A stretch of 64,000 nucleotides of DNA, from assembly GCF_058153355.1 (NCBI RefSeq), contig NZ_CM177019.1; one strand, given 5' to 3'. This document shows, piece after piece, positions 16,922-50,336 of the stretch. A program made the translations under genes and the position numbers. Position 1 is the first letter of the stretch, and every line of letters begins with the position of its first letter. The notes under the pieces were generated by a model, which searched no databases, was not told where the DNA came from, and saw only the letters and a list, made by a program, of their open reading frames with translations.

Positions 16922-17002
16922 AAAAAAACCTGCTGGTGAGGCAGGTTCTTTTATTTACTACTTTGACGATAACTTGCTGATTGTGCAACATTTCGTACCA
17001 AC
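16922..17002 (-). ncRNA. orzO: Candidate antisense sRNA antitoxin (OrzO-like), about 80 nt
   Basis: Minus-strand TTGCAA-N17-TATAAT promoter (-10 at 17009..17014), 5' 18 nt complementary to the zorO leader, intrinsic terminator hairpin ~16929..16947 plus T-run. Confidence 0.55.
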
Positions 17003-39700: not shown

Positions 39701-39973
39701 ATGTCTCATACAATCCGTGATAAACAGAAACTGAAAGCGCGTGCCAGTAAGATTCAGGGCCAGGTCGTGGCGCTCAAGAAAATGCTCGACGAGCCGCACG
39801 AATGCGCAGCTGTTCTACAACAGATTGCTGCTATCCGTGGCGCGGTAAACGGCCTGATGCGCGAAGTGATTAAGGGGCATCTGACGGAACACATCGTTCA
39901 CCAGGGGGATGAGCTAAAACGTGAAGAAGATCTGGATGTCGTTCTGAAGGTGCTGGATTCTTATATCAAATGA
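39701..39973 (+). CDS. rcnR: Ni/Co-responsive repressor RcnR (YohL)
   Basis: 90 aa, [22 protein letters not shown]... Confidence 0.9.
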
Positions 39974-40082
39974 AAGTGCCTAATATGGCCGTAGTTGAGG
40001 CAATAAATAGAGGGACAAGTGACGTTAAGCTGAATTAGAGTAAATGGCGTGAGGACACACGCCATTCGAGGATATAGTTTGA

Positions 40083-40397
40083 TTAATTTTCGAAAAATTG
40101 CTTCACAGCCCAGCCACCATGACCACCTGGAGTTATGAATGAAACAAAACCTTTGTCATCGACGCTCTGGATTTCTACTGTCATTGATTCATCTAACACG
40201 CGACATTTATTGGATGTAATGAGACTCAGCATAGCCTGTTGGTCATTGTCCTGGATGTAACTGATCATCTCGTAAAAGTCAGTTAACTTTTTACAGTTAA
40301 ATGTACCTTCTTTAAGTGTTGCGCTGTCTCCGTGACTTAGTGCGAATGCATTTGGCATCATTGCCACAAAGATGACGGTAACGAGTAGTTTTTTCAT
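40083..40397 (-). CDS. Hypothetical small secreted protein (104 aa, two Cys in mature part)
   Basis: Signal peptide MKKLLVTVIFVAMMPNAFA; low-GC island; no family recognised. Confidence 0.55.
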   Translation of the reverse strand: MKKLLVTVIFVAMMPNAFALSHGDSATLKEGTFNCKKLTDFYEMISYIQDNDQQAMLSLITSNKCRVLDESMTVEIQSVDDKGFVSFITPGGHGGWAVKQFFEN

Positions 40398-40406
40398 TGT
40401 AGCCTC

Positions 40407-40754
40407 TTATAATTCAGAACATTCACTGATGTTGTAAGTGCCTTTTCTACCATCATCGTTTACGAGATGTAGCACGAAGATGATGGGATTGGCATCAATG
40501 AAAGATACAGAGACGTTCCCGCTTTCGGTGCTATACATCTTTGCAATCTGTTTTTCACCAATATATGAAAGATCCCAACTCACTCCGTTCAAGCTAAAAT
40601 GCATCTGTTTGCCGTCAATATCGATGGAGGATTGTGCCGTAACGGTTTTCCCATTGCTGCCAATTTGACCCTGCTGAAGAGCATCACATTTATAGGAGCT
40701 TGCATAAGTAAATAGAGGTAGTAGCAGAAGTGCAGCAAAAATTTTACTCTTCAT
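40407..40754 (-). CDS. Hypothetical small secreted protein (115 aa, Cys near both ends of mature part)
   Basis: Signal peptide MKSKIFAALLLLPLFTYA; 9 bp upstream of the 104-aa ORF on the same strand. Confidence 0.55.
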   Translation of the reverse strand: MKSKIFAALLLLPLFTYASSYKCDALQQGQIGSNGKTVTAQSSIDIDGKQMHFSLNGVSWDLSYIGEKQIAKMYSTESGNVSVSFIDANPIIFVLHLVNDDGRKGTYNISECSEL

Positions 40755-41807
40755 ATTTTCCCTTTGCTTGGATTTGAGTTACCTATTTTGGGGTAGTCAT
40801 TATAAAACTATTAATTAGTAAAATGAACAAGTTTTCATTTGTTTAGTAATGGTATTGTTTAGGTTTGAAATTATTACGTACTTTCATAGCAATAGGTTGG
40901 ATAAACAGCAGTTCAGAGAACAAGTTGCACTATCTACATACTTTCCCGCTTTCCATTGTATGTTAGGTAATAGATAGCCTTTGCCCGTAAGACTAAAAAT
41001 ATTAGAAATGACTCATTCGAATACCTTCTATTCACCTTAATATAGGTTTGATTATTGTAATCGTTTAATGTGTCTTATGGATTTTTTCCTACTTTTCATT
41101 TGCATAATATAGGGGGCACAGCATGCTCTTGAAATTAATTATTAAGATATTTAAATTTTACAGCACACAACTACTTTTCGTTGTCTTATGTGTTGAACGT
41201 ACTTCGAGTATAGGTAGGGTTGTATATATATTGCGTGGGTAGAGTTAGAATAGAGGAGGCATCATTTATAGAATATTCAAGAACGTTAACCTGTGATCAA
41301 TAAATAAAAATATCAAATGGTGTTCAAACATATTTTTCTATGAAAAATCCAGCCATCTATGATGAATTTTTAGATCCATTTTAATTAAAGTATGATTATG
41401 AACCAATATTTAGCCAAGAATGGTGGTATAGCGCGTATCCAATGACACCGGAAAACGCATCTATGAAGTCCTTGTTTATCTCTATAAGAGGAAATCAACA
41501 CTAATAAAATATAGTGATGTAACACATCGAGCAGGTTGCTCTGATGCTGGTCTTCAACTGTGGCTTAAACAGCTATCAAACTTCGGTGTTATTGAGATGA
41601 AAGAATTATCTTTCTCAACTTTCAATCTCAAAAAGCTAGAGGAAATAGACCTTAATTATTCCACTCTCTAAACTTATCTCTTTATTTAAAGTAAAAATGA
41701 AAATATTATGGTATCAGCTACGTGGTGGTAACTGGTGTTTATGATCATAGGTACACATATACAGGGAACCCTGGAAAACAAAAGTAATATATTGATGATT
41801 TCGTTTG

Positions 41808-42047
41808 TTATAACTTCGTGGTATCAAGTCCGGCGGCTTTGAGTCGCTCGGTAAGATTTCTCATTTTGCTGAACTCTGTACCAAAGCTGGCTTTAAGTCC
41901 TACACCTTCGCAAAACTCTTTTGCCGTGACGTTTTTAAGATGGTCAGCGTATTTGATCATCTGGAGGTGCATTTCCATCGTTTGGCTATTTCGTGGTGCG
42001 CTGCTAATGGCTTGCTTAATGTTCTCGTAGATCTGGGTTTCTGTCAT
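41808..42047 (-). CDS. Hypothetical 79-aa protein, possible helix-turn-helix
   Basis: AGGTGAG Shine-Dalgarno ~8 nt upstream; HTH call is by eye only. Confidence 0.4.
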   Translation of the reverse strand: MTETQIYENIKQAISSAPRNSQTMEMHLQMIKYADHLKNVTAKEFCEGVGLKASFGTEFSKMRNLTERLKAAGLDTTKL

Positions 42048-42271
42048 TTTTTATCTCACCTATCAAATTTAGATAAATAATATAAATTAGATAAATAAGA
42101 TAATCAATAGTTTTTACCATATGAATAATGGATGTGGATTGTTTCTTTTTCATTTCTGATATGGAGTACAAAATGGGGTCACAATGAAGAAGCGATGAAT
42201 GGAGGCGAGCTTGCATCTGCAAGCCTCTTCCCCTAATCTGGCACAAAATATAGAGATTCAACCAAACGACT

Positions 42272-42392
42272 CGGGGTGCCCTTCTGCGTGAAGGCTGAGA
42301 AATACCCGTATCACCTGATCTGGATAATGCCAGCGTAGGGAAGTCACGGACCACCAGGTCATTGCTTCTTCACGTTATGGCAGGAGCAAACT
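42272..42392 (+). ncRNA. TPP (thiamine pyrophosphate) riboswitch in the thiM leader
   Basis: THI-box core ...ggggtgcccttctgcgtgaaggctgagaaatacccgtatcacctgatctggataatgccagcgtagggaa... directly upstream of thiM ATG. Confidence 0.9.
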
Positions 42393-43181
42393 ATGCAAGT
42401 CGACCTGCTGAGTTCCGCGCAATCTGCGCACGCGTTACACCTTTTTCACCAACATTCCCCTCTTGTGCATTGCATGACCAATGATGTGGTGCAAACCTTT
42501 ACTGCCAATACCTTGCTGGCGCTCGGTGCATCGCCAGCGATGGTTATCGAAACCGAAGAAGCCAGTCAGTTTGCGGCTATCGCCAGTGCCTTGCTAATTA
42601 ACGTCGGCACGCAGACGCAGCCACGCGCACAGGCGATGCGTGCTGCCGTTGAACAGGCAACACACTCTCAAACCCCCTGGACGCTTGATCCGGTCGCGGT
42701 TGGCGCACTCGATTATCGTCGCCGTTTTTGTCATGAACTTTTATCTTTTAAACCGGCAGCGATACGTGGTAATGCTTCGGAAATCATGGCATTAGCTGGC
42801 GTTGCTAATGGTGGACGGGGAGTGGACACCACTGACGCCGCAGCTAATGCGATACCCGCTGCACAAACACTGGCACGGGAAACTGGCGCAATCGTCGTGG
42901 TCACAGGCGAGGTGGATTATGTTACCGATGGTCGTCGCACCGTTGGCATTCACGGCGGCAATCCGTTAATGACCAAAGTGGTAGGAACTGGCTGTGCATT
43001 ATCGGCAGTTGTCACTGCCTGTTGCGCATTACCAGGCGATATGCTGGAAAATATCGCATCTGCCTGTCACTGGATGAAACAAGCCGGAGAACGCGCCGTC
43101 GCCAGAAGTGAAGGGCCTGGCAGTTTTGTTCCCCATTTTCTTGATGCGCTCTGGCAATTGACGAAGGAGGTGCAGGCATGA
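42393..43181 (+). CDS. thiM: Hydroxyethylthiazole kinase
   Basis: 262 aa ORF following the TPP riboswitch. Confidence 0.9.
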
Positions 43182-43978
43182 AACGGATTAACGCTCTGAC
43201 AATTGCAGGCACTGATCCCAGTGGTGGTGCGGGGATTCAGGCAGATCTCAAAACGTTCTCGGCACTTGGTGCTTATGGTTGCTCAGTGATTACTGCACTG
43301 GTGGCGCAAAATACCCGTGGCGTACAGTCGGTGTATCGCATTGAGCCTGATTTTGTCGCCGCCCAGCTCGATTCGGTGTTCAGCGATGTGCGAATCGACA
43401 CCACTAAAATCGGTATGTTGGCGGAAACCGATATTGTTGAAGCGGTGGCAGAACGGTTGCAACATTATCAGATCCAAAACGTGGTACTCGACACCGTTAT
43501 GCTGGCAAAAAGCGGCGACCCTCTGCTTTCACCTTCGGCGGTTGCCACGCTGCGCAGTCGATTATTGCCACAGGTTTCATTAATAACGCCAAACTTGCCC
43601 GAAGCAGCTGCCTTGCTCGACGTGCCACACGCGCGCAACGAACAGGAAATGCTGGAACAAGGACGAGCGCTGTTAGCGATGGGCTGTGGCGCAGTGCTGA
43701 TGAAAGGCGGTCATCTGGATGATGAGCAAAGCCCGGACTGGCTGTTTACCCGAGAGGGGGAACAACGGTTTACTGCACCGCGCATTATGACCAAAAACAC
43801 CCACGGCACTGGTTGTACGATCTCTGCGGCGTTGGCTGTACTACGCCCGCGCCATACAAACTGGGCTGACACCGTTCAGGAGGCAAAAAGCTGGCTTTCA
43901 TCGGCGTTAGCCCAGGCCGACACGCTGGAAGTTGGTCACGGTATTGGTCCGGTTCACCACTTCCACGCGTGGTGGTGA
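43178..43978 (+). CDS. thiD: Hydroxymethylpyrimidine / phosphomethylpyrimidine kinase
   Basis: 266 aa; ATGA overlap with thiM. Confidence 0.9.
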
Positions 43979-50204: not shown

Positions 50205-50336
50205 ACCCCGTAGGGCGGATAAGGCGTTCACACCGCATCCGGCAACCTATGCCTGATGCGACGCTGAAGCGTCTTATCATGCCTACACAGCGCTGCCACG
50301 TATGCCGGATAAGGCGTTTACGTTGCATCTGGCATA
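50205..50336. repeat. Cluster of REP/BIME extragenic palindromes
   Basis: Three REP-like units (gtagggcggataaggcgttcacaccgcatccggcaa and relatives). Confidence 0.6.

Follow-up and report, generated by a model that had tools for sequence, protein, structure and literature searches.

Where an accessory islet ends a few nucleotides short of an intact riboswitch, two questions arise: does the riboswitch still work as it does in Escherichia coli K-12, and why should the foreign DNA stop exactly there? We addressed both for the thiM leader in a 64,000-nucleotide stretch of contig NZ_CM177019.1 (assembly GCF_058153355.1), hereafter called the window. The thiM riboswitch is itself a textbook element about which nothing new is claimed here; its E. 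coli K-12 counterpart is reportedly the TPP riboswitch described by Winkler et al. in 2002.

The covariance scan suggested as a check by the initial annotation placed the TPP aptamer, or THI element, at 42262..42358 on the plus strand, with 71.2 bits against Rfam model RF00059 (E = 5.1e-12; model positions 1-105 of 105). This is above the gathering score of 54.3 bits and far beyond chance. Helices P1-P5 of the aptamer occupy 42267-42346, with P1 formed between 42267/8-42271 and 42342-42345/6, and the THI-box core is unchanged in both the CUGAGA junction (42295-42300) and the pyrophosphate-sensor arm ACCUGAUCUGGAUAAUGCCAGCG (42313-42335). All 134 positions of the leader (42259-42392) agree with the thiM leader of K-12, and alignment to a K-12-derivative genome extends the identity over 42259-42413, i.e., through the first thiM codons and 21 nt into the gene.

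Downstream of the aptamer lies the K-12-identical expression platform (42359..42392, plus strand), which ends just before the ATG at 42393 and contains the anti-SD UUGCUUCU (42362-42369) and the SD region AGGAGCAA (42382-42389, core GGAG at 42383-42386). When the aptamer pairs were enforced in ViennaRNA, UUGCUUCU paired with AGGAGCAA and the Shine-Dalgarno sequence was sequestered, whereas in the unconstrained minimum-energy fold the aptamer 3' half GCCAGCGUAGGGAAG paired with the anti-SD region and the SD was free. In silico, the platform is predicted to switch between these sequestered and free states. The minimum free energy z-score of the leader is an unremarkable -0.29, as expected for a bistable RNA. 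The K-12 element is summarised by Bastet et al. (2017; PMC5499598) as acting through SD sequestration and, secondarily, Rho-dependent termination. From the 100% leader identity to K-12 we infer that TPP binding and in vivo repression of thiM are probably the same here. The initial annotation, which had called the aptamer and the sequestered thiM Shine-Dalgarno intact and the element a classic translational TPP riboswitch, is thus borne out by the model score, the identity to K-12 and the recovery of both conformations by folding. Its interval for the element, 42272-42392, is right at the end, the base before the ATG, but starts too far downstream and omits the P1 5' strand (42267-42271).

The thiM gene begins 35 nt past the Rfam match and is followed by thiD, which makes the element the leader of a thiamine gene. 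Both are on the plus strand, thiM at 42393-43181 (TIGR00694, 330 bits) and thiD at 43178-43978, and together they form an operon (42393..43978) under riboswitch control. Identity to K-12 is 736/789 (93.3%) in thiM, 769/801 (96.0%) in thiD and 264/273 in rcnR, the gene on the other side of the islet. An invariant leader beside a divergent thiM and thiD could reflect strong purifying selection on the leader, a recombination breakpoint at the riboswitch, or both. Over 41000-43200, at least 99% identity is reached by just 9 of 5431 matching records. Elsewhere in the window, Rfam models matched an OrzO-P antitoxin RNA of a type I toxin-antitoxin system (16922-16995, minus strand; RF02083, 90.6 bits), of which strain E50 has a better-scoring copy near yehK-yehL (102.8 bits), and the nucleoid-associated, REP-like naRNA4 (50213-50283, plus strand; RF02564) at 60.0 bits, barely above its gathering score of 59.5.

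A minus-strand open reading frame of 112 aa (42016..42354) overlaps the riboswitch and had been dismissed in the initial annotation as false. We agree, and give practically no credence to its being a real protein. Its full length is found in the window and in the nearest relative (L001), but the same frame yields only 82 residues in O157:H7, 52 in both E50 and Z1323CEC0012, 40 in L6-21 and 33 in K-12. It lacks any Pfam match, is left unannotated by RefSeq/PGAP in the nearest relative and in O157:H7, and crosses the junction between island and chromosome while also overlapping the start of an HTH_73 gene.

The islet occupies 39974..42258 (2285 bp, G+C 29-40%). In K-12 the order is rcnR, a 91-bp spacer and the riboswitch, and in the window the islet substitutes for the entire spacer. 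Its left boundary falls exactly at the stop codon of rcnR (39701..39973, plus strand); this codon (39971-39973) is TGA here versus TAA in K-12, with the RcnR C-terminus unchanged. On the right, homology to islet-free genomes begins at 42259, 3 nt ahead of the Rfam match, and most E. coli genomes align to the window only from there onwards. The islet had been described as directly abutting the riboswitch, with its boundary within ~200 bp upstream: the abutment stands, with the junction at 42258/42259, but the distance does not, as the islet ends 13 nt before 42272. Among 5426 complete E. coli genomes, 339 carry the full islet, O157:H7 among them, and 5025 have the K-12-type spacer, a number that includes 194 integrase-bearing genomes with the same spacer on their attL side.

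At the right end of the islet is a 79-aa HTH_73 gene on the minus strand (41808..42047; PF24718, E = 6.5e-31), divergent from thiM. The intergenic region between the two holds two tandem 18-nt repeats, AATTTAGATAAATAATAT and AAATTAGATAAATAAGAT (42066..42101), which are overlapped by a promoter-like TTGATT-17-TATATT (42107..42079, minus strand) ahead of the HTH_73 gene. Further to the left are two minus-strand genes, one for a 115-aa secreted-looking hypothetical protein (40407..40754; PHROG 35183, function unknown) and one for a 104-aa protein (40083..40397; PHROG 33226, function unknown) that RefSeq names an outer membrane protein and for which no Pfam match was found.

What the islet is becomes clearer from E50, which carries a 7.6-kb element at the same locus. 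Read in the orientation of thiM, the order in E50 is rcnR, the K-12 spacer, an annotated TPP riboswitch, a tyrosine recombinase of 435 aa, cargo that includes an HNH endonuclease, the 79-aa HTH_73 gene also found in the window, a second TPP riboswitch and thiM. The recombinase matches PF00589 and has the catalytic motifs ARRGE, HSFRH, GHEK and RY. Junction alignment shows that the element is bounded by an exact 82-bp direct repeat, CAACCAAACGACTCGGGG...GCCAGCGTAGGG (L006, 898-979 and 8630-8711), and its outer flanks are those of the K-12 empty site. In related genomes the empty site, with the K-12 spacer and a single riboswitch, is what remains of the occupied site once the element and one repeat are taken away. 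The repeat runs from the P1 5' strand through the P4 3' strand, leaving the P1 3' strand outside, and an exact-match search finds it twice in E50 and once in the window, at 42259..42340 on the plus strand. The window copy corresponds to attR, on the thiM side.

The 13.4-kb island of L6-21 is organised in the same way, with int on the left and HTH_73 on the right. Its attL is the exact E. coli 82-bp repeat. The riboswitch at its attR differs in the 5' flank and in P3, where both strands of the helix are changed (GCCCCAUC...GAUGGGC), and scores 73.6 bits. This combination of flank and compensatory change indicates that the island brings its own, structurally maintained aptamer 5' half, and the presence of the altered P3 in attR places the crossover 3' of P3. 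Copies at attL, without the native P1 3' strand, score lower, at 60-61 bits. The junction of riboswitch and int is found in the 194 integrase-bearing E. coli genomes counted above. Comparison of occupied and empty loci indicates that the first 82 bp of the thiM riboswitch are the attachment site of a family of tyrosine-integrase islands. This role would explain, to the nucleotide, where the islet in the window ends: the 42258/42259 boundary is the point at which the attachment-site repeat, made up of the riboswitch's first 82 nt, begins.

The association extends well beyond E. coli. When the E50 integrase was searched against one genome per species, 41 loci were returned, and at 24 integrase loci in Enterobacterales an aptamer 5' half ends 60-100 nt before the int start. 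Among the genera represented are Citrobacter, Enterobacter, Lelliottia, Erwinia, Pantoea, Klebsiella and Rahnella, as well as Cedecea, Atlantibacter, Silvania, Mangrovibacter, Franconibacter and Kosakonia. The Rfam TPP gathering score is reached at 12 of the loci. An intact integrase at one end is a feature of E50, L6-21 and loci L008-L030, and four loci with short islands were verified to have attR and then thiM (66-73% amino acid identity); in Enterobacter cloacae (L016) two repeat copies of ~75 bp are present. The integrases fall into two clades with distinct junctions. In clade A the junction is ...GCGTAGGG/GGCCGAAATTCGGCC... and in clade B it is ...GCGTAG/TCCTGGCGATTATCC, the slash marking the junction; in the latter, cgtagtc is flanked by GGATAATGCCAG and CTGGCGATTATCC as an inverted repeat, which resembles core binding sites flanking a crossover and may serve as such. 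Some family integrases are preceded by the right end of another island, which indicates tandem arrays. One contig labelled as a Flavobacterium psychrophilum metagenome-assembled genome (L012, QFQM01000240.1) also carries an Enterobacterales-type junction of riboswitch and int, with an integrase 79% identical to that of E50; this contig is probably a binning contaminant.

More distant relatives of the integrase (~30% identity) lie immediately 3' of rnpB, the RNase P RNA gene, in the marine Gammaproteobacteria Methylophaga, Marinomonas, Microbulbifer, Oleiphilus and Oceanospirillaceae (L031-L038, L040-L042 and L044, at about 2450-2915 in each). Their position suggests that this integrase lineage targets structured RNA elements. 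At one of these loci (L032, 6140-6342) there is a second, partial rnpB copy ~3.3 kb away, which has the appearance of a small island's second attachment site. No match to the family integrase was found in 50,697 phage records.

Against this background, comparison of the islet with its relatives marks it as a decayed and immobilised remnant of these riboswitch-targeting islands. The rightmost 893 bp of the islet (41366-42258) share 86-87% identity with the right-hand ends of the islands in E50 and Z1323CEC0012. The HTH_73 gene, which E50, Z1323CEC0012 and L6-21 share at this position, is the conserved right-end gene of the island family, and the 18-nt tandem repeats are kept in the same three strains; these repeats are a possible operator for the HTH_73 gene, perhaps an autoregulatory one. 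The 115-aa protein is island-family cargo too, with homologues of 42-43% amino acid identity inside the E50, L6-21 and Z1323CEC0012 islands. What the islet retains is the right end, comprising the HTH_73 gene, the promoter region and attR. On the left, the islet joins the rcnR stop codon directly, with attL and the native thiM promoter deleted; the window has no second 82-bp repeat and no intact integrase. What does remain of the integrase is a C-terminal relic at 40892..40984 on the plus strand, ~30 codons long and carrying an in-frame stop, for which tblastn of five family integrases against the islet gave 55-79% identity (E = 4e-6 to 6e-5). That the left module (40083-40754) lies between rcnR and this relic may, as one possibility, be the result of decay of a tandem array.

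It is this relic, together with the right-end identity to integrase-bearing islands, the integrase and the two bounding riboswitch 5' halves of the islet's intact relatives, and the recurrence of the same geometry at 24 loci in many genera, that makes a simpler account very improbable in our view. According to that account the riboswitch is wholly native and an unrelated islet has been inserted into, or has replaced, the rcnR-thiM spacer, so that the boundary reflects no more than selection against damage to the riboswitch. It would fit a window with one repeat copy and no integrase, and an 82-bp segment identical to K-12, whose sequence therefore cannot tell an island from a chromosomal origin; it would also fit the supplementary table of Hochhauser et al. 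(2023), which lists 'rcnR-thiM' as a type IV restriction locus of mobile-element type 'None'.

Another state of decay is seen in 81EVA (L003, NZ_CP138397.1, 2140-5080), where rcnA is truncated by an IS3 element, rcnR is absent, a gene for a 301-aa HTH protein is present and the last 74 bp of the island right end are kept before the riboswitch. A homologue of HTH_73 also occurs on plasmid pX14-3-NDM (NZ_CP084057.1; L050, 9006-10551), directly downstream of a different tyrosine recombinase and on the same strand, with a second recombinase and a BREX system adjacent. Since the plasmid homologue adjoins a tyrosine recombinase, this arrangement suggests that HTH_73 proteins work with integrases, e.g., as a directionality factor or regulator.

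If the islet is the remnant of such an island, its consequence for thiM is a change of promoter. The K-12 spacer holds the native thiM promoter, TTTACA-17-TACCAT, which is absent from the window, and TTTACA-17-TAnnnT is conserved ahead of thiM riboswitches in several genera. Removal of the native promoter would leave the operon dependent on island-derived promoters. We place the corresponding region at 42185..42258 on the plus strand, a stretch conserved across island variants. It includes a palindrome, GCTTGCA/TGCAAGC (42209-42224), and a -35-like TTGCAT (42211-42216) separated by a 17-nt spacer from a -10-like TAATCT (42234-42239). The two hexamers are weak, with 6/12 consensus matches, and a sigma-70 consensus scan of the plus strand from 41400 to the riboswitch returned no promoter because this one is too weak for its thresholds; it was instead located through conservation and published distances to transcription starts. 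A sigma-54 reading of CTGGCAC-N5 was rejected, as the -12 element (TTGC) is absent.

In numberings of the thiM RNA, transcription presumably starts at the position equivalent to 42259, the left end of the repeat. As a start site this is only approximate, the RegulonDB and Cappable-seq starts tabulated in PMC10469882 (Table S5) being 3-16 nt further upstream. For K-12, that table gives a RegulonDB distance of 150 nt from start codon to transcription start, which puts the start 7 nt after TACCAT. For O157:H7 EDL933, Cappable-seq starts are listed 137, 148 and 201 nt upstream of the ATG; these are distances from a summary table, and the strain differs from the source of the window. EDL933 carries the islet and is identical to the window from ~42196 to the ATG except for one base, and the O157/window alignment projects the three tabulated distances onto 42256, 42245 and 42192, all in island DNA. 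The 148-nt start (42245) fits TTGCAT, the 17-nt spacer and TAATCT. The island right end is conserved up to the repeat, with clade B ends carrying a thiM-type promoter of their own, and the retention of just the last 74 bp in 81EVA is consistent with that stretch being needed. In the genome studied here, thiMD is thus probably transcribed from island-derived promoters, with starts equivalent to 42245 and 42256. The K-12 transcript starts with a small 5' hairpin, GCGAU-UUAUC-AUCGC (L002, 5987-6001), just upstream of the repeat, which the islet-type transcript (compared with window 42245-42258) does not have; its absence could affect mRNA stability.

The reading that we favour, at a probability of roughly 0.85, is that the riboswitch works as in K-12, that its first 82 bp are an attachment site, and that the islet is a dead island which supplies the promoter. 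The proposed mechanism has two layers. In the RNA, TPP binding would hold the aptamer 3' half and leave UUGCUUCU free to pair with the SD region (42382-42389), which would block translation of thiM and secondarily permit Rho-dependent termination; without TPP, GCCAGCGUAGGGAAG would pair with the anti-SD and the SD would be open. In the DNA, the integrase-distal end of the island would carry an outward-facing promoter followed by the island's own copy of the riboswitch 5' half. Recombination near ...GCCAGCGTAG(GG) would rebuild a complete riboswitch before thiM at attR and leave the native promoter and an aptamer lacking P1 before int at attL. In the genome studied here, thiMD would then be driven by island-derived promoters and gated by an unchanged riboswitch.

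In the circular form of the island, the island promoter would read through the repeat into int, so that integration would swap promoters between int and thiMD. It is tempting to add that a TPP aptamer in the 5' UTR of int, both in the circle and at attL, makes integrase expression and mobility respond to thiamine status. Clade A attL copies do exceed the gathering score of the Rfam TPP model, at 57-63 bits, the int start lies ~68 nt after the aptamer match, and at attL int is downstream of the native thiM promoter. We nevertheless think it unlikely that int is controlled in this way, given that the P1 3' strand is not conserved at attL, that most clade B copies fall below the gathering score with P4 shortened by the junction ...GCGTAG/TCC, and that a non-systematic look found no conserved alternative pairing with the int Shine-Dalgarno sequence.

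A broader proposal builds on the promoter swap itself. An integrase that targets the riboswitch would exchange promoters reciprocally, placing thiMD under the island promoter, possibly controlled by HTH_73, and int under the thiM promoter with a truncated aptamer, and decay would then have fixed this state in O157:H7-type strains. We put this forward tentatively and would not expect it to hold in full. If true, the reciprocal swap would tie island mobility, or the expression of thiamine salvage, to the state of the island. Setting that proposal aside, the favoured reading already implies that in ~6% of complete E. coli genomes, O157:H7 included, the thiM riboswitch is driven by foreign promoter DNA and sits beside a foreign HTH gene, and for this reason the regulation of thiMD upstream of the riboswitch may differ from that in K-12.

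In the open-access full-text literature we found no report in which a riboswitch serves as an integration site, and nothing relevant that connects thiM or rcnR with an integrase or island; riboswitches and thiM are likewise absent from the main text of Mageeney 2020 on integrative elements. The closest comparison is with the K-12 thiM riboswitch itself. The aptamer, the SD-sequestering platform, the downstream operon and the sequence from -134 to +21 are the same; the promoter and the initial 14-16 nt of the transcript are not, and here island DNA abuts 42259.

The islands that use tRNA and tmRNA genes, and the prophages that do so, offer a second comparison. In these, too, a tyrosine integrase lies beside an RNA element and the repeats are a partial copy of a structured RNA, and in both the tRNA/tmRNA-type and the riboswitch islands function is kept because the element carries a replacement part. 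The difference is that the riboswitch islands enter a cis-regulatory mRNA leader instead of a gene for a stable RNA, and that they replace the 5' half and promoter, as opposed to the 3' end, with the result that the functional copy is at the junction far from int. Islands at the 5' end of dusA, and e14 in icd, integrate inside functional sequence and supply a substitute for the displaced segment, and the dusA islands also supply a new promoter and 5' end. The dusA and icd targets are protein-coding, whereas here the duplicated segment is a ligand-binding aptamer, which in L6-21 has compensatory changes in P3. The attachment site of phiEf11 in ffs, the 4.5S RNA gene, as outlined in PMC12540744, is a recent example of a structured-RNA site other than tRNA, though in another RNA, another host and another type of element. 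Site-specific integration into structured RNA is already known, and what sets the present case apart is the riboswitch as the target: the comparison of genomes indicates that a cis-regulatory mRNA leader can serve an integrase in the same way as tRNA, tmRNA and, for the distant relatives, RNase P RNA genes do.
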